64,000 nucleotides of DNA. Origin: Escherichia coli. GTDB lineage: Bacteria; Pseudomonadota; Gammaproteobacteria; Enterobacterales; Enterobacteriaceae. Position numbers and translations under genes: made by a program. The DNA is taken from assembly GCF_016026235.1 (NCBI RefSeq), contig NZ_CP065613.1, one strand, 5' to 3'. Below are positions 1-11,300 of the stretch, piece after piece. The number at the start of each line of letters is the position of its first letter. Positions within the stretch are counted from its first letter, which is position 1. The notes under the pieces are model-generated. The model worked only from the letters and a program-made list of their open reading frames with translations. It searched no databases and was not told the origin of the DNA.

Positions 1-645
1 GCCAGAGCAAAAAATACTAAAGCTTTCCGTTTCACAAGTCAGGTTAATGACGCTATTAATCCTCCAAAACAACCAAGACAGCCACGAATTAGCGGAAACA
101 GAGCAATCACAGCAGCTTACTCAGCGAATATGAGCAAGCTAAAAGGCTTTGACCCTATTTTGCAGAAATACATCAAATCTCAATTTTACGGGCTATCTGC
201 TAAAGCTGGGGCAATGGATAATTCAAAATTCAATGAGAAGTTAGCTCAGTTAAATGCTTCAGTCAGAGAAGCAATTGCTAAAGCCAGAGGTCATACATCC
301 ACCAGCATTAATGGTGACAGAGCAGCTAGCAGCCTTGATAACCTGTCTTCAGCAGCAGTTAGAGCAGCAGGTGCATTTATCAGCTTTCAGGCTGTACTAT
401 CCGCTTATCAGCGAGTACTGGAAGTTGGTTTACAGCGTGCAAGTGCTGAACGTTCAATTGATTTCGTATTCGGTGACCAAAGTACACAGGTTAAAAAGTT
501 CATTCAGGATTTAACTCAAATTACTGGTATGGACACAACCGAAACACAAGCGCAATTTGCTTCATTTGGTGCATGAAGTGGCACACTGAATTTGGCCACC
601 TGAACAGAGGTGATATGCTCACCTCAGAACAACACAGGTGCTCCA

Positions 646-1814
<1,169 letters not shown>

Positions 1815-3088
1815 CCACTTCAGCAAGTGCAACGACTACGATGGGTCTTGAAGGGTCAGAAGAGCTATTTAAAAACCTTACAGGTTATGCTCGTTTAATG
1901 GGGCGTTCAGATGAGCAGATTCAAAGAGCATTAACCGCAGTGTCACAGATGGCCTCTAAGGGTCAGGTGATGGCTGAGGAGTTGAAGGGGCAATTATCTG
2001 AAGCTTTACCGGGTGCTACTCAGGCATTTGCAAAGGCTTTAGGTCTGACTGAAAAACAGCTTTTCGATAAGATGAAAAATGGTGATGTTAAAGCCTCTGA
2101 TGCACTTCCTAAGTTTGCTAAAGAACTTGGTGCACAGATTAATTCAAGAGGTGGCTGGAAAGCTATTCAGGATTCTACGCAGACGATGTTAGGAAACTTA
2201 AAGAATACTTGGAACAACTCACTAACGGATATTTTCAGAGGTTCTGAAAATGGTCTGCAAGATTTCACAAGAAGCCTAACAACGCTTTTAAACAGTTTAG
2301 GTGGAAGTGGTAAAAGTCTTGGTGAATCTCTTGGTAGCTTGATGAGCGATATGTCGCATGGTGTCGATAGTCTGACTGATATCAGCTACAGGGTGAGAGC
2401 GTTCTTTGATGAGGTGACATTAGCTTACCGTGGTTTAACCGATGAGCAAAAGAAAGTAGTTGATGCTTTAGGTTCTGGCTTGATTAATAGTTTAAAAGTC
2501 TTGGCTGGTGTTATTGCTGTAAATAAAGTTGTTGGTGTAACCAGAAGTATTTACGGGCTTATGACTGCTATCACAAGATTAGGTCAGGTCGCTGATACAA
2601 CAGCGGATAACGTGAATAGAAAGAATGGGAAACCATCAAGATTGAATCTTGGGAATATGCTATTAGCTGGTAGCGCTCTCTATGCAGGTTATGAAAGATT
2701 AGCCTCTACACCTGAACGAATGGAAGCACAAGCTAAATTACCAGAGCTGGCTAAAGAGTCTGGACTTAAACCCGCTTTCACTATGGATGATGTTAAAGGG
2801 TGGTTTAATAGTGCTGCTATGAATCTTGCTAACTTCCAGCATCCAGAATTAAACAACATTAAGCAAGATTCAGCATTAACGAGTGCAGATATCCAAAGCC
2901 TGAGAGATGAAATCTCCGCTTTGAGCAAACGTATTCAGGAGCCTGTGAAAGTTTCACTTGGTGGTGAAGTTGCCATTAAACCAGATGAAACCAGCTTTAT
3001 GACCTTTAGCAGTAATATCTACGACCAATATGCAGAAGCTACGCTATTAAGTTCATCATTCCCAGAAGATGATTAATAATAGTCGAAT

Positions 3089-3143
3089 GCTACGTGAATA
3101 AAGCAAAGTTAATACCCACACCAAAAGTTATTTTTCACGTAGC
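3089..3143. repeat. 10-bp perfect inverted repeat GCTACGTGAA / TTCACGTAGC with a 35-bp spacer
   Basis: Read directly in the intergenic region between the tape-measure gene and the next phage gene. Confidence 0.5.
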
Positions 3144-4111
3144 TCACGCTTAACAGAGAAAATACTTATATATCAAAGGAGAATTTAATGATTTACACTA
3201 ATCAGCTTCGTTACACTGGTAAAGATGGCGTTTACTTCCACTTAAGAGATAATGTAGATGCCTTCTTAACCTTATCAGCAACTGAAAACATGGAATTTGA
3301 TAGCCCTATGATGGTTACCACTCAAAATATGCAATCAGGGCAAACCGTCACAGATAATGTTCAAAGAGCACCCAGAACAATTACTATTAGTGGTGTGGTT
3401 GTAGTTGGTGAATCCGGTAGTATCCTTATCTCAAGAGATAATAAGCTGGTAGAAAACTTCATTGACACTCTTGAAAGCTGGCGTGACCAGAAGCAGATTA
3501 TTTCGGTCATCTGTAAAGACGGAATTAAAATTGATGATTCCATTATTACAAGCTTTAAAGCCTCTAAAGATGTTGGTATTTCAAATGGCCTAAGAATCCA
3601 GCTAACTTTTCAGGAAATTAACTTCAAAGCTATTGTGGGTCAAACTGATATTTCGGCTGCAACTGGAAAGACTGCTACCACAAATGATGGTGGTGCTACC
3701 AGTAAAAAGAATACAGGGAACACTACGACAAGTTTAGGTAATGGTATGTTGATGTGTCAGGAGCTATATAATCGCTCTACGAGTGAACTTACTAATGAGC
3801 AACTTCAAGCCCGTATCAATTGTGGTAAAAGTGTCAAAGTTGAGAATGGAAAAAGCACCTTCTCAGATGCCGCTAATGAGCAAGCTTCAAAGGTGCTTAA
3901 TAATGCTGGTACAGGTAGTGCGTATTTTCATGAAAGGAGATCACTCAATAACTTCCATCGAGATCGGGTAATAACATTTGAACAGATCGCTGAATAACAT
4001 CGATGGAGATCACTTTTGACTCATTTTGTTATTCAGTGATCTCCATCAATGTTATTGGAACTTCACAGGTGTGTTGATCTGTATCTTTTGCCATTCCGGT
4101 AAAGGATACCT

Positions 4112-5512
4112 ATGCCAACAGTTCCAATTTCTATGAGAAAACTTAAAGAAATTCTTAGGCTTAAATACGGTGTTGGACTCAGCCATCGACAAATTGGTCG
4201 TAGTCTTGCAATCTCCCCTTCCGTTGTATCCAGATATGCTAATCGGGCGGCTCAACTTGGCATAAAGCAGTGGCCCTTACCTACAGGATGGGATGATACA
4301 AAACTAAAACATGCGTTCCTTCAGACCCAGGTTAAGATGAAGAAGCACTCTCTGCCTGACTGGGCTACAGTACACTGGGAACTGCGTAATAAATGCGTGA
4401 CGCTGCAGCTACTCTGGGAAGAATACTGTGAGCGTAATCCAGGCGGTTTTTACAGCTATAACCATTACTGCCGGATGTACCGTGAATGGCTCAAAACCAC
4501 TTCACCATCAATGCGTCAGGTACATAAAGCTGGCGAAAAACTTTTCGTTGATTACTGTGGACCTACCGTTGGCGTTACCGACCCTGAGACCGGAGAAATA
4601 AGAACTGCTCAGGTCATCGTAGCTGTTCTCGGGGCATCAAGTTACACATGGGCAGAGGCCACCTGGTCTCAGCAGCTTGAAGACTGGGTGATGAGTCATG
4701 TTCGCTGCTTCCAGTGGTTGGGTGGCGTTCCTGAACTTGTTGTTCCGGACAATCTGAAAAGCGCCACATCCAGGGCATGTAAGTATGATCCTGACGTTAA
4801 CCCTACCTACCAGCAGATGCTTGAGCATTATAATGTCGCAGTTTTGCCTGCGCGGCCACGTAAACCGAAAGATAAAGCCAAAGCTGAAGTTGGCGTTCAG
4901 GTTGTTGAACGCTGGATCATGGCCCGAATCAGGCATGAGATCTTCTACAGCCTTGCATCGCTTAATCAGCGCATTCGGGAGTTGCTGGAAAGACTGAATA
5001 ACAAAATAATGCAGAAGTTGGGTTATTCACGTGCAGAACTCTTCATCCAGCTTGATAAACCCGCACTGAAGCCTCTTCCTGAAGCCAGTTACAGTTACAC
5101 CCTGGTGAAGAAAGTCAGAGTTCATGCCGATTACCACGTGGAAATCGACAAACATTACTACTCGGTTCCATGTTCGCTGTTAGGCCAGCAACTGGAAGCA
5201 TGGATCTCCGGAGAACTGGTAAGACTCTTCAATCAGGGGCAGGAGGTTGCTGTGCACCCGCGCAAGCGTACTTATGGCTACAGTACCCGCAACGAGCACA
5301 TGCCTGAAGCTCATCGACAGCATGCCACCTGGACGCCAGAGCGTCTTCTGGAATGGGCGGGGCACATAGGCAGTGAAACTCATAGTTATGTGCTTCATAT
5401 ACTGAACTCTCGTCCACATCCGGAACAAAGCTATCGCTTCTGCCTTGGACTCCTGAACCTTCATAAAAATACAGTAAAGCCAGACTTAATGCAGCATGTG
5501 CAAGAGCTCTGA
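4112..5512 (+). CDS. istA: IS21-family transposase IstA, apparently frameshifted near its 3' end
   Basis: N-terminal helix-turn-helix-like region MRKLKEILRLKYGVGLSHRQIGRSLAISPSVVSRYANRA and a DDE-type body. The ORF stops at 5512, but the -1 frame is open from 5467 to 5652 and ends 12 nt before istB. Confidence 0.8.
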   Translation: MPTVPISMRKLKEILRLKYGVGLSHRQIGRSLAISPSVVSRYANRAAQLGIKQWPLPTGWDDTKLKHAFLQTQVKMKKHSLPDWATVHWELRNKCVTLQLLWEEYCERNPGGFYSYNHYCRMYREWLKTTSPSMRQVHKAGEKLFVDYCGPTVGVTDPETGEIRTAQVIVAVLGASSYTWAEATWSQQLEDWVMSHVRCFQWLGGVPELVVPDNLKSATSRACKYDPDVNPTYQQMLEHYNVAVLPARPRKPKDKAKAEVGVQVVERWIMARIRHEIFYSLASLNQRIRELLERLNNKIMQKLGYSRAELFIQLDKPALKPLPEASYSYTLVKKVRVHADYHVEIDKHYYSVPCSLLGQQLEAWISGELVRLFNQGQEVAVHPRKRTYGYSTRNEHMPEAHRQHATWTPERLLEWAGHIGSETHSYVLHILNSRPHPEQSYRFCLGLLNLHKNTVKPDLMQHVQEL

Positions 5513-5663
5513 AAACAAAGGTATGGCGTCTGTCAGGTATTAAATCGATCCTGGAAAAAGGTCTGGATAAACAACCTGTTCAGGATCCAAAACCAGATCT
5601 GTTATCCACGATGGAACACGAAAACGTACGCGGCAGTGAGTATTACCACTGATACGGGATCCA

Positions 5664-6413
5664 ATGATGAATCATCTTTACGAACAACTGACCGCACTTA
5701 AACTCACCGGCTTCCGTGATGCGCTTAAAAAGCAACTTGCTCAGCCGGGCACATACCAGGAGCTGGGCTTCGAAGAACGCCTGTCATTACTGACAGCAGA
5801 AGAACTAACCTGCCGTGAAAACAGGAAGGCAGAGCGTCTGATCAAACATGCACGGTTCAGACTTAATGCTGAGTTATCAAAGCTGGATTATCGTAACAAT
5901 AGAGGGCTGGACAGGGCCCTCATCCGTTCACTCAGTCAGGGAAACTGGTTAACCCTGAAACAAAATATTTTACTGACCGGGGCCACCGGCAGCGGTAAAA
6001 CGTTCCTGGCATGTGCACTTGGTCATAATGCCTGCCGACAGGGATACAAGGTCTACTATTATCGCCTTAAAGCGCTGATGGAACAGTGCTATCAGGGGCA
6101 TGCTGATGGAAGATACAGCAAACTTTTGACTAGGCTGAATAATAGCGATCTGCTGCTTCTGGATGACTGGGGGCTGGAACCTCTCTCATCAGAACAGCGT
6201 AGCGACCTGCTGGAAATAGTGGATCTGATGTACCAACGAGGCTCAATCATCGTAGTGAGCCAGTTGCCGGTGGAAAACTGGTACAAAATGATCGGAGACT
6301 CCACACATGCGGATGCCATCCTAGATCGACTGGTTCATGGCAGTATCAAGATTGAACTTAAAGGAGAATCAATGCGGAAAATACAATCTCCGTTGACCGA
6401 AGGAGATCAGTGA
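5664..6413 (+). CDS. istB: IS21-family helper ATPase IstB
   Basis: Walker A motif LLTGATGSGKTFLACALG and DnaC-like layout, located immediately after istA. Confidence 0.9.
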   Translation: MMNHLYEQLTALKLTGFRDALKKQLAQPGTYQELGFEERLSLLTAEELTCRENRKAERLIKHARFRLNAELSKLDYRNNRGLDRALIRSLSQGNWLTLKQNILLTGATGSGKTFLACALGHNACRQGYKVYYYRLKALMEQCYQGHADGRYSKLLTRLNNSDLLLLDDWGLEPLSSEQRSDLLEIVDLMYQRGSIIVVSQLPVENWYKMIGDSTHADAILDRLVHGSIKIELKGESMRKIQSPLTEGDQ

Positions 6414-6560
6414 AGGTAATTTAAAAACGGTTCTGTGAAAGTGACACGAACCGATCTCCATCGATGTTACTCACCGATCTCCTTCACGGTAATACGCAGG
6501 TAGTACTTTGAAGAAGTTTAGTGTGAATCCTAACAAGCGATACTGACGATAGAATCTCAA

Positions 6561-8090
6561 CTATATGATAACCTCATCAACATCTATTAAACCCCTCTCA
6601 GTGACTTCAGAAAGCGACTGTATAGCCTCTGTAACGTCCTCTGAGGGGTTTTCTGTTATTGGTAGGTCAATTACCTTACCGTTGTGAAAAGTTACTTTAC
6701 AGCGACGTTTAGCGGCATCTATAACTATTTCTTTGAGTACGCCCTTGATAAGTAGCTGTGTCTCTACCATCCCTTCCTTTGTTGTCCTGTCAATATCTTT
6801 GAGGCTTCCAGTTGTGATGGCCTTTATCCGCTGTGTTTCCTCTTCGATATCATGATTGAGTTTTGATAGCGCATTCTTCATATCACGTAATTTCTCTGTG
6901 ATAATTGTCATGTCATCGAGTTCAATAGCGAGTTCTGCCATTTTTGAGATTTTACGCTGCAAATCTTCACGCTGTAATTTAAGGCTATCAATAGTGTCAG
7001 TATTTTCAGTTTCAAAACGGTCGCATAATGCGAGCATGTAAAGGATAGTTGCATCCGTTTGCTTACGACTGATAGCCTTTGCACTACACCTGTTAGCTGA
7101 ACGATTAGGACATCTGTACATCCCAAAACGTTTTAAGGCATATCCACCAAGAACAATAGTAGCCCCACACTCAGAACATTTGATGATACCCCTGAACAAG
7201 TTGACTGATAGCGGATTACTTGATACAGAAGCCCTACCATATTGCCCTGTGTTCAGTTGCTGTACTCGATAGAATAGTGACTCACTGATTATTGCGGGGT
7301 AGTAACCCTGAACTTCTTCACGTCCAGCAGGTGTGAAACATCCAATCACAGCACGATTTCTGAGTAGTTTCTTTACAGCAGTATCAGACCATCCCTTTTG
7401 TTTAGGTGTGTATTGATTCAATGACAAGTGGCCTTCATCGTTTAAAGTTCTGGTGATAGCCCAAAAGCTTAAACCCTGTAATCTCAGGTCAAATGCTCGT
7501 TTAACAACTTCCACTTTATCGGGGATGATAGTGAATGTTCGACGGTCATCATTCAGCCTTAACCATGCAGGACAACGCCTAGATACCTTGATACCTTCGG
7601 AGATGAGTTCTTTTTTACGGTTCCATGCAGCTTGGACACGCTCAGACTTCCTCAGACTTTCCTCATGCGCCCGCTGCATTATCAGAATGCTTTTAATCAG
7701 GGATAACGGGTCTTTTAAACTTTCTCGTGTGTAATGTTCACCATCGGACAGGGTGACTACATCTACACCAGCCCTTAAGATACGGCGTAATAGCTCAGAA
7801 GCAATATCAATATCCTGACGTGACAGACGGTCTAAACTCTCGATTAGTAGCGTATCACCAGCTTTAACAAGCCCTTTCTCGATAGCGGTTAGAAAGTCAC
7901 CTAGACCACCTTTCAGGTGCTTACCACTAAAAGCACTTTTCCCCAAATCTTTAAAGCTCAAGGATGAATCCAAGTAAAACTCAGGGTTCTTATCAAGCCA
8001 GTCAGTAACCAGCTTAGATTGTCTGCGTACAGAGTCCCCTTTTAGTTGTCGTTCACTTGAAAATCTGATGTAGCTGATTGCCCGTCTCAT
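6561..8090 (-). CDS. Large serine recombinase (phage integrase type)
   Basis: N-terminal resolvase-like catalytic region (AISYIRFSSERQ), a cysteine-rich zinc-ribbon-like segment (CSECGATIV...YRCPNRSANRCS) and a C-terminal extension. ATG at 8088-8090 is preferred over the TTG at 8096 used by the ORF track. Confidence 0.85.
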   Translation of the reverse strand: MRRAISYIRFSSERQLKGDSVRRQSKLVTDWLDKNPEFYLDSSLSFKDLGKSAFSGKHLKGGLGDFLTAIEKGLVKAGDTLLIESLDRLSRQDIDIASELLRRILRAGVDVVTLSDGEHYTRESLKDPLSLIKSILIMQRAHEESLRKSERVQAAWNRKKELISEGIKVSRRCPAWLRLNDDRRTFTIIPDKVEVVKRAFDLRLQGLSFWAITRTLNDEGHLSLNQYTPKQKGWSDTAVKKLLRNRAVIGCFTPAGREEVQGYYPAIISESLFYRVQQLNTGQYGRASVSSNPLSVNLFRGIIKCSECGATIVLGGYALKRFGMYRCPNRSANRCSAKAISRKQTDATILYMLALCDRFETENTDTIDSLKLQREDLQRKISKMAELAIELDDMTIITEKLRDMKNALSKLNHDIEEETQRIKAITTGSLKDIDRTTKEGMVETQLLIKGVLKEIVIDAAKRRCKVTFHNGKVIDLPITENPSEDVTEAIQSLSEVTERGLIDVDEVII

Positions 8091-8094
8091 ATTC

Positions 8095-8130
8095 AATACC
8101 TAAAATGATGTGTTTAGGAACCCATTATAC
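8095..8130. other. Prophage-chromosome junction (attR-type site) within mdtG
   Basis: mdtG-like codons diverge from the recalled K-12 sequence about 8120-8128 and are followed by phage-derived codons MGS and a stop. Inverted repeat CCTAAA-N8-TTTAGG at 8099-8118. Confidence 0.5.
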
Positions 8131-8311
8131 TGAAGACAATACCGGACCACATATTCAGGGCGGAGTGGCCGGTAACGCCAAGCTGCTCAACGTAGAGGGG
8201 TAAGAAGGGCATTACCAGACTGAAGGCGGCACCGGTAAGAAAACAGCCTAGCCAGGCGACGATCAGGTTTCGTTTCCAGTTTATAGGGGTGTCATTTTCA
8301 CAGGGTGACAT
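8114..8311 (-). pseudogene. mdtG: mdtG (yceE) 5' fragment, about 62 native codons, truncated by prophage insertion
   Basis: Translation [62 protein letters not shown] matches the recalled MdtG N-terminus, then ends MGS-stop instead of continuing into the transporter. Confidence 0.85.
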
Positions 8312-8482
8312 AGCAATCCGCTATTGGTGCGCCAGGCGCGGTGAACATAAGAAGAAAAGATAAGCACACTAATTATGCGCCCGACTTCCAGGGGGTGCAA
8401 TCCAGAGAGCTTTTATCGCTAAATCAGGGGGATTTGCTGTGGTAATGCCGGATGCCATTCTGAAGCATCCGGCATGGAAGAT

Positions 8483-9403
8483 TTAATAGCGTGAAGGAAC
8501 GCCTTCCGGGCGTGTTTTAAAGCGACGGTGTAACCACATATACTGCTCTGGTGCCATCATGATGCATTTTTCGACCACTTTGTTCATCCACGCGGCGGTA
8601 GTTTCGGCATCATCCAGTGGCGGAGAACACTCTGGCGGCAGCATAATCAATTGATACCCTTTGCCATCTGGCTTACGGCGTGGAACGAAGGGCACCAGAC
8701 ATGCGCCGGACATCCGTGCCAGCATCCAGGTTCCGGTCGTGGTCGCAGCCTGCTCAACGGCAAATAACGGGACGAAAACGCTTGAGCGCGGGCCGTAATC
8801 ATGATCCGGTGCGTACCAGACCACTTCGCCTTTTTTCAGGGCTTTAATCATGCCTTTTAAATCTTTGCGGTCGAGCATCGATTTATTTGAGCGCAAACGG
8901 CCCCAGGTTTGTAGCCAGTCAATCAGTGGATTATCGTTCGGGCGGTAAACGCCAATCCCCGGTTCCTGCATACCAAACTGCCGCGCGCCCAGCTCCAGTG
9001 TCAGAAAATGGATGCCAACTAACAGGATGCCGCGTTTTTGCGCCTGCACGTCACGAATGTGTTCCATGCCGATCACTTCCGTCCAGCGGGCGATTCGGCG
9101 GTCCGGCCAGAACCACGCCATGCCGGTTTCCATCAGGCCCATGCCAACGGATTCGAAATTCTTCACCACCATTTTACGGCGTTCTTGTTCGCTCATTTCC
9201 GGGAAGCACAGTTCCAGGTTGCGATGCACAATTTTTGCGCGTCGTTTCATAAAACGTAACGCCAGTTTTCCTAATCCACAACCGAGGCGGTAGATAACCG
9301 GGTAGGGCAATTGCACGACTAACCAAAGTACGCCAATACCCAACCAGGTTAACCAATAACGCGGATGAAGCAGTGCGGTGGAGAACTTGGGTAGATTCGT
9401 CAT
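8483..9403 (-). CDS. lpxL: Lipid A biosynthesis lauroyltransferase LpxL (HtrB)
   Basis: 306 aa from MTNLPKF, matching recalled LpxL; synteny next to mdtG. Confidence 0.93.
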
Positions 9404-9627
9404 ATCAATCCTGTTTTTCAACCTATTCGGGCAATTGTATGTATTGTCGCATTTTTTCGCCCGCAACCAAAATTTGTGGCTGAAGACTGGGCGAAATTGC
9501 CGCGCTTGTAAATAACAAATAATTTTTAATGCGCAAATGTAGCGTAAAATGTGTGGATGTTAATTATCGATAATTGCTATATCATGCCGCGGATTTTTAC
9601 TTTCCCATCTCGCAGGAACCGTACACC

Positions 9628-10680
9628 ATGCCAGTGTTACACAACCGCATTTCCAACGACGCGCTAAAAGCCAAAATGTTGGCTGAGAGCGAACCGCGAA
9701 CCACCATTTCGTTTTACAAGTATTTCCACATCGCCGATCCTAAGGCGACCCGTGACGCTTTATATCAGCTGTTTACCGCGCTGAATGTTTTTGGGCGAGT
9801 GTATCTGGCGCATGAGGGCATTAACGCGCAAATCAGCGTACCTGCGAGCAATGTTGAAACATTTCGCGCGCAGCTCTATGCCTTCGACCCGGCTTTAGAG
9901 GGTTTACGCCTGAATATCGCGTTGGATGATGACGGGAAATCCTTCTGGGTACTGCGCATGAAGGTACGCGATCGCATTGTTGCCGACGGTATTGACGATC
10001 CTCACTTTGATGCCAGCAATGTTGGTGAGTATCTGCAAGCGGCGGAAGTGAACGCCATGCTTGACGATCCCGATGCACTATTTATCGACATGCGTAACCA
10101 CTATGAGTATGAAGTGGGGCACTTTGAAAACGCTCTCGAAATTCCGGCAGATACCTTCCGTGAGCAGCTGCCAAAAGCAGTCGAGATGATGCAGGCACAT
10201 AAAGATAAAAAAATCGTCATGTACTGCACCGGCGGCATTCGTTGTGAAAAGGCCAGTGCCTGGATGAAACATAACGGATTCAACAAAGTCTGGCATATCG
10301 AGGGCGGAATTATTGAATACGCCCGTAAGGCGCGCGAGCAGGACTTGCCGGTGCGTTTTATTGGCAAAAATTTTGTTTTTGACGAGCGGATGGGCGAACG
10401 TATATCTGATGAGATTATCGCGCATTGCCACCAGTGCGGTGCGCCGTGCGACAGCCATACCAACTGTAAAAATGATGGCTGCCACCTGCTGTTTATTCAG
10501 TGTCCAGTATGTGCGGAAAAATACAAAGGTTGTTGTAGTGAGATTTGCTGCGAAGAAAGCGCGTTACCGCCAGAAGAACAGCGACGCCGTCGGGCAGGAC
10601 GTGAAAATGGCAATAAGATCTTTAATAAGTCTCGTGGACGTCTGAATACAACACTGGGCATTCCTGATCCAACGGAATAA
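9628..10680 (+). CDS. yceA: Rhodanese-domain protein YceA (TrhO, tRNA uridine hydroxylase)
   Basis: 350 aa from [17 protein letters not shown]; cysteine-rich C-terminus; synteny. Confidence 0.9.
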
Positions 10681-10688
10681 ATATCATT

Positions 10689-10710
10689 GCCGGATGCGTG
10701 CCATCCGGCA
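10689..10710. terminator. Hairpin GCCGGATG-N5-CATCCGGC between convergent yceA and yceI
   Basis: Perfect 8-bp inverted repeat read directly between two convergent genes. Confidence 0.5.
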
Positions 10711-10721
10711 ACATTTCACTC

Positions 10722-11297
10722 TTACTTCTGCTGTACGCCTTCCACTGAAATAATCAGATCCACTTCCTGAGAAGCTGGACCTAAATCTGTCTTGATATTG
10801 AAGTCCTTGAGCTTAATTTTGCCTTCGGCCTCGAAGCCTGCACGTTTACCACCCCATGGGTCGTCGCCCTGACCAATTAATTTCGCTTCCAGCGTGACGG
10901 GTTTGGTTACGCCATTCAGCGTCAGATCGCCGGTAATATCCAGTTCGTCACCGTCTTTCTTCACGCTGGTGGAGGTGAATGTTGCCTGTGGATATTTTGC
11001 GGTATTGAGGAAATCTGCACTGCGAAGATGTTTATCGCGTTCGGCGTGATTAGTATCGACGCTGGTGGTGTTAATTGTCACATTCACTTTATCGGCAGCC
11101 GGATTTTTTTCGTCAAAGGTAAAAGTACCGTCGAAATCTTTAAAGGTGCCGTATAACCAGCTATAGCCAAGGTGCTGGATGCGGAAATTAACAAAGGCGT
11201 GCTGACCTTCTTTGTCAATTTTGTAATCGGCGGCAACCGCTGAACCGGCAGAGAACATCAGGGACGCGAAGGTTAAACCAAGCAGGCTTTTTTTCAT
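10722..11297 (-). CDS. yceI: Periplasmic YceI-family protein
   Basis: 191 aa with signal peptide [22 protein letters not shown]; synteny. Confidence 0.92.
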
Positions 11298-11300
11298 TTT

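Follow-up and report, generated by a model that had tools for sequence, protein, structure and literature searches.

The serine integrases of Bxb1, phiC31 and A118/LI recognize attP sites of ~50 bp, which form an imperfect dyad about a 2-bp crossover and share a few base pairs with attB. In the standard serine-integrase mechanism, recombinase dimers bind the sites, cleavage takes place at a dinucleotide, and the strands are religated after subunit rotation. To our knowledge, the att sites of large serine recombinases (LSRs) are simple, ~40-50 bp in length, and carry no accessory sites. In IS10, fold-back inhibition involves a sequence at the element end that can pair with the ribosome-binding site of the recombinase gene.

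Closest to the locus described here is Ec07, an E. coli LSR (HAJ7447475.1), which Durrant et al. 2022 (Nat Biotechnol 41:488; PMC10083194) list, together with attP and attB, in a supplementary table of experimentally characterized LSRs. According to the supplement entries covered, both sites are predicted 104-bp sequences, each composed of 50 bp, CTGA and 50 bp (PMC10083194). A 2025 review includes Ec07 in a table of integrases that have been applied to integration in human cells.

Here, we analysed the window, the whole 64,000-nucleotide stretch of E. coli DNA, around a recombinase gene that adjoins a fragment of mdtG. As in the Bxb1, phiC31 and A118/LI systems, attP adjoins the integrase gene and attL and attR each combine one P-type with one B-type half-site. 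Unlike in these systems, the host is Gram-negative, the target lies inside an efflux-pump gene and the site sequences are unrelated; also unlike in this comparison set, no directionality factor was identified for the Ec07-type element.

The integrase gene and its element

The recombinase gene occupies positions 6561..8090 on the minus strand, with its ATG at 8090..8088, and encodes 509 amino acids followed by a stop codon (translation beginning MRRAISYIRFSS). The reading frame is intact in the window. Its product scored above the Pfam cut-offs for Resolvase (PF00239, 60.1 bits), Recombinase (PF07508, 64.7 bits) and Zn_ribbon_recom (PF13408, 31.1 bits), and this set of domains therefore places it among the LSRs. 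The N-terminus of the protein was located in the supplement of Durrant et al. 2022 under the entry Ec07, and the two proteins are distinguished by 2 differences in the 399 residues given there (PMC10083194). Compared with the sites printed in the same entries, window positions 8080-8129 agree with the integrase-proximal half of the Ec07 attP, and positions 8134-8183 with the mdtG 5'-side half of the Ec07 attB, at 49/50 positions in each case (PMC10083194). The integrase is therefore Ec07, and recombinase, target gene and att sites are all known from published work. What was published are attP and attB, whereas the window contains an integrated hybrid attR and an element with two IS insertions. 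The passages of Durrant et al. 2022 covered here give neither a half-site anatomy nor a choice of dinucleotide (PMC10083194), and a literature term search on mdtG as an integration site returned nothing specific. To this, the present analysis adds an anatomy of the half-sites, the assignment of CT and a comparison with a paralog in yecE.

In the window genome, mdtG is split by a small, decayed phage-like element of ~11 kb plus IS insertions, and the element extends beyond the left end of the window. The insertions were located by the annotation of matching records and by colinearity. One, of the IS3 family, lies in the tape-measure-like gene (574..1822, plus strand). The other, an IS21-like ISEc12, separates the baseplate-like gene from the 3' end of the integrase gene (3900..6513, plus strand; istA at 4112-5512, istB at 5664-6413), and here the window shows a colinearity gap relative to the uninterrupted elements of L002, L004 and L012. 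At mdtG in other genomes the element measures 3-11 kb and carries genes for a small DNA invertase, a replication-initiator-like protein, a tape-measure-like protein, a baseplate- or endolysin-like protein and the LSR; some copies additionally encode an HNH endonuclease. Elements of this ~11-kb phage-like family were found in ~299/5,426 E. coli genomes, with LSR variants that target mdtG or yecE. Family members are seen at window positions 1-8133, L002 positions 9320-20534, in L004, and at L012 positions 4023-15593. They carry too few genes for a phage and may be remnants or satellites.

The paralogous LSR, 71% identical in amino acid sequence to that of the window, is found in yecE in many E. 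coli genomes. For comparison we used an occupied site (L012, strain KSC9), an empty site (L013) and further IMG/VR loci (L007-L010). The yecE-type element resembles the mdtG type in its backbone of a tape-measure-like gene, a baseplate-like gene and the LSR, and in an integrase gene that closely follows the 5' fragment of the target gene and is codirectional with it. It differs in its target, in a 2-bp AA core and in an LSR of only 71% identity. A DNA search of 50,697 phage records for an intact mdtG-type attP gave no match, and the IMG/VR search retrieved nothing beyond one fragment and yecE-type relatives (68-69% identity).

The left ends of the elements have features of their own. At positions 9352-9385 of L002 (GN4751), immediately interior to the P' arm, are inverted repeats in a nested arrangement, ACCTGTTAATTACAGG and ACCTGTT...AACAGGT. 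They are kept in mdtG-type copies, with small changes or an insertion in some; they are also present in the published Ec04 attP (PMC10083194, supplement entry) and absent from the yecE-type left end. Ec04 has its attB in wrbA, and its attP as listed shares the left-end CCTGTTAATNACAGG repeat (PMC10083194), so Ec04 may belong to the same element family. The yecE-type left end carries GGTTCCTAAAGGTG ~40 bp inside the P' arm (L012 ~4060-4075, +37..+50 from the core). It shares ten identical bases with the mdtG-type P arm read on the integrase strand (GGTTCCTAAA) and may represent an accessory site or the relic of a half-site.

The junction with mdtG and the anatomy of attP

In nearly all of the about 5,425 complete E. 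coli genomes searched, mdtG is uninterrupted. The same recombinase-mdtG junction as in the window was found in 18 of these complete genomes and the opposite junction in 21. None of the complete genomes matches the window perfectly in this region, the closest reaching 98.9-99.5%. We aligned the empty site of K-12 (L001) and the occupied sites of five other E. coli genomes (L002-L006) on their host flanks. Only CTGA, at positions 8130..8133 of the window (plus strand), was common to attB, the five left junctions and the six right junctions. Element DNA extends from the integrase start codon up to 8129, and mdtG sequence from 8130 rightward; this boundary is the same in all copies. Identity as short as this, 4 bp here and 2 bp (AA) at the yecE paralog, is in keeping with LSR att sites; tyrosine integrases usually have longer stretches of identity.

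The initial annotation had placed a candidate attR core at 8091-8135. The interval indeed holds a serine-recombinase attR, and the crossover core CTGA falls inside it. The comparison it had proposed, with the opposite junction and an uninterrupted mdtG, did reveal this shared core, and related sequence in inverted orientation is present at the opposite junction of the five other genomes. It had placed the divergence from mdtG at about 8120-8128; at the DNA level homology to intact mdtG stops at 8130. The protein match extends further, to 8126, only because two element-derived codons are by chance synonymous (AGT for AGC, ATA for ATT).

On the host side, tblastn with MdtG matched residues 1-62 only, at 100% identity (8311..8126), and the remainder of the protein is absent from the window. 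According to the ORF list, tblastn and the sequence itself, the truncated mdtG ORF (8114..8311, minus strand) encodes these 62 residues followed by M-G-S and a stop codon. The host-derived arm of attR, the B' half-site inside mdtG, is assigned to positions 8132..8156 (plus strand); its nominal length of ~25 bp is inferred, and over this stretch the sequence is identical to K-12 mdtG, beginning at 8130. The truncated ORF is codirectional with the integrase gene and ends 23 nt before the integrase AUG, with its TAA (8116..8114) inside the TTTAGG hexamer at 8113-8118. In the paralog, the truncated yecE ORF likewise stops at a TAA within the conserved half-site motif (GTTTAAATAC). Since in both systems the integrase gene is codirectional with the 5' fragment of the host gene and lies just downstream of it, read-through from the host promoter into the integrase gene is likely. 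Upstream, at 8362-8382 (minus strand), the interval that separates lpxL from the start of mdtG contains a terminator-like hairpin followed by a T run. This hairpin presumably terminates lpxL transcription, and only ~50 bp remain for mdtG's own promoter.

The left junction is not contained in the 64-kb window, where tblastn detects MdtG residues 1-62 only and the half-site motif described below has a single exact copy. Therefore, attP was rebuilt with the left junctions of other genomes, by joining the element arm of the window to the arm that follows CTGA there (GATATTTGTTCCCTAAATACAC[C/T]AT...). The rebuilt attP is complementary at 18/25 positions about the CT at 8130-8131; all other centres tried gave 4-9. 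For one centre this corresponds to a binomial P of ~4e-6, and the symmetry ends at +-25. The element-derived arm of attR is thus the 25-bp P half-site at 8105..8129 (plus strand), defined by its 18/25 complementarity to the P' arm. As CT lies inside the CTGA overlap and the symmetry centre falls there, CT (8130-8131) is most likely the crossover dinucleotide. The method of finding the centre is supported independently, at the level of sequence, by the yecE paralog, whose attP also shows 18/25 symmetry and whose junction overlap of exactly 2 bp (AA) coincides with the symmetry centre.

All four P-type half-sites, the P and P' arms of the mdtG and the yecE type, share an outer motif at -24..-13 with the consensus TGRTGTRTTTAG. 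In the window it reads TGATGTGTTTAG (8106..8117, plus strand). We take this motif to be the contact of the zinc-ribbon domain, by extension from the LI integrase-attP structure. A copy of the P-type motif displaced inward was also sought in the attB half-sites, and no convincing match was recognized by eye. Across five other copies, the 43 bp at 8091-8133 carry 0-1 substitutions, while the integrase coding sequence differs by 0-9%. This near-invariance fits constraint on the att arm and the leader, and does not single out the CCTAAA hexamer at 8099-8104; the mdtG-type copies are so nearly identical over the interval that they hold no variation by which CCTAAA alone could be judged. We are highly confident of the att-site anatomy as such.

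The inverted repeat and the integrase leader

Direct reading of the sequence shows the inverted repeat at 8099..8118, CCTAAA ATGATGTG TTTAGG on the plus strand, with perfect 6-bp arms and an 8-bp spacer. Its position was correctly described initially, both as just 5' of the recombinase start (minus-strand ATG at 8090..8088) and as adjoining the end of the mdtG fragment. With spacers of 0-12 allowed, the whole window contains 334 perfect inverted repeats of 6 bp, ~1 per 192 bp, and 9.5% of the 45-bp windows across it contain one. The 6-bp repeat by itself is statistically unremarkable and not above chance.

The two arms belong to different features. The right arm, TTTAGG, forms part of the outer motif of the P half-site together with the spacer; TGATGTGTTTAG, which has its sole exact copy in the window here, covers the spacer and most of this arm. 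Its true partner is the CCCTAAA at the far end of the element and not the nearby CCTAAA. The left arm (8099..8104) lies at -31..-26 from the crossover, beyond the attP dyad. In the half-site comparison its hexamer was absent from the three other P-type half-sites, and it falls outside the 25-bp half-site. Read on the minus strand it gives UUUAGGU, 7 nt and AUG, with the Shine-Dalgarno-like AGG(U) located 8 nt 5' of the integrase AUG, and the left arm is likely, judging from this arrangement, the ribosome-binding site of the integrase. On the best reading, the repeat comprises two side-by-side features of separate origin, the outer motif of the P half-site and the ribosome-binding region, and it probably has no function of its own.

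Three readings give the repeat such a function. That it is the dyad of the att core, with crossover in the 8-bp spacer at 8105-8112, was suggested by its closeness to the junction and by the dyad symmetry typical of serine-recombinase sites. However, element sequence continues to 8129 and host sequence begins at 8130 in all copies, and the repeat centre (8108/8109) lies ~22 bp from the symmetry centre of attP at the CT, with only the right arm and the spacer inside the att site. The published Ec07 sites, as listed in the supplement, are likewise centred on CTGA (PMC10083194). The junction comparison refutes this reading, whose probability is practically nil. An operator for the recombinase gene was the other role considered from the start; more broadly, the repeat could be a DNA operator or accessory site, bound by the integrase, a directionality factor or a repressor and controlling integrase transcription or the direction of recombination. 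The repeat does lie between a lone perfect TATAAT (8124..8129, minus strand), which abuts the core, and the integrase AUG, within a stretch that is invariant or nearly so in diverged copies. Yet no acceptable -35 hexamer accompanies the TATAAT in the integrated or the excised configuration; on the integrase strand, promoter prediction found no sigma-70 promoter in attR, and our own scan found none in attR or the rebuilt attP. The mdtG and yecE types both have a third half-site hexamer (TTTAGG/CCTAAA) just outside the dyad, at about -25..-31, and this could hint at an accessory contact. Its orientation is opposite in the two types, however, neither P' arm has a mirror copy, the LSR att sites known to us have no accessory sites, and a 6-bp repeat is expected by chance in ~1/10 such windows. 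Altogether, an operator or accessory site seems very improbable.

The remaining possibility concerns the transcript. In the integrase leader, the hairpin CCUAAA-CACAUCAU-UUUAGG could hide the ribosome-binding site. A transcript entering from the mdtG promoter would contain all of the hairpin, with one of two outcomes: integrase translation would be damped, as in IS10 fold-back inhibition, or it would be coupled to translation of the truncated mdtG ORF, which terminates (stop codon 8116..8114) within the 5' arm. No Shine-Dalgarno-like AGG other than that of the 3' arm precedes the AUG, and the hairpin alone (28 nt) reaches z = -2.1 against shuffles. As in IS10, an element-end sequence complements the ribosome-binding site of a recombinase gene that reads away from the end; unlike in IS10, the pairing amounts to 6 bp and -3.9 kcal/mol only, and the resemblance is one of analogy. 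In contexts of 46-76 nt, z lies between +0.5 and -0.8, no better than shuffles. Rfam returned no RNA-family match, and terminator prediction called no terminator at the repeat. The mdtG-type copies are without variation in the hairpin. More favourable are the leaders of the yecE type, in which the P arm pairs with both the ribosome-binding site and the AUG (L008, -27.1 kcal/mol, z = -5.7; L012, -19.4 kcal/mol, z = -3.1) and a TTTAAA-17-TACAAT promoter lies between the two arms, the layout expected for fold-back inhibition. This strong folding makes a regulatory pairing in the element family not far-fetched. However, an alignment of five yecE-type leaders contained no compensatory changes and gave an unfavourable covariation term, and the arms of the hairpin occupy non-homologous positions in the two types. 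A regulatory hairpin at the mdtG site, the coupled variant included, is accordingly unlikely in our view. Unlikely, too, is the broader proposal that in this element family the pairing of the P arm of attP with the start of integrase translation is deliberate. Transcripts from the host gene (mdtG or yecE) would then be translated poorly, or solely through coupling to the truncated host ORF; integrase expression would also be set by integrase itself, bound to the P arm; and 8099-8118 would be a reduced, mdtG-type form of the yecE-type hairpin.

The yecE-type leader deserves description in its own right. It is ~30 nt longer than that of the mdtG type and differs from it by its own promoter-like TTTAAA-17-TACAAT and a strong hairpin, in which the P arm is the pairing partner of the Shine-Dalgarno sequence and start codon (L012 15525-15600, minus strand; L007-L010 2925-3012). 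The promoter-like sequence lies inside the P arm, its -35 hexamer being the half-site motif itself. In its layout, the leader is analogous to a combination of IS10 fold-back inhibition with autorepression.

Integration at mdtG and its meaning

The reading we prefer is that the repeat is a half-site motif beside a ribosome-binding site, at an Ec07 attR with its crossover in CTGA, and we regard this explanation as a whole as quite probable. Positions 8105-8156 are the attR hybrid left when the ~11-kb phage-like element integrated into mdtG by means of its own LSR, Ec07. Recombinase dimers would bind the ~52-bp attP and the attB inside mdtG, both sites would be cut at the central dinucleotide, most likely CT (8130-8131), and subunit rotation would be followed by religation of the strands. 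The product in the window consists, in this order, of the P half-site (8105-8129), CT, and the mdtG-derived B' half-site. In the source genome, the left junction should consist of mdtG from codon 63 onward, CTGA and TATTTGTTCCCTAAATACAC.

The general understanding of serine integrases is unchanged by this analysis of the junction. Ec07 is a serine integrase explored as a genome-engineering tool, and the half-site motif and the CT assignment could aid in trimming its att sites or in changing the core dinucleotide. Of practical value is the correct annotation of the locus: mdtG is split by the element, and the crossover lies in CTGA, not in the repeat.
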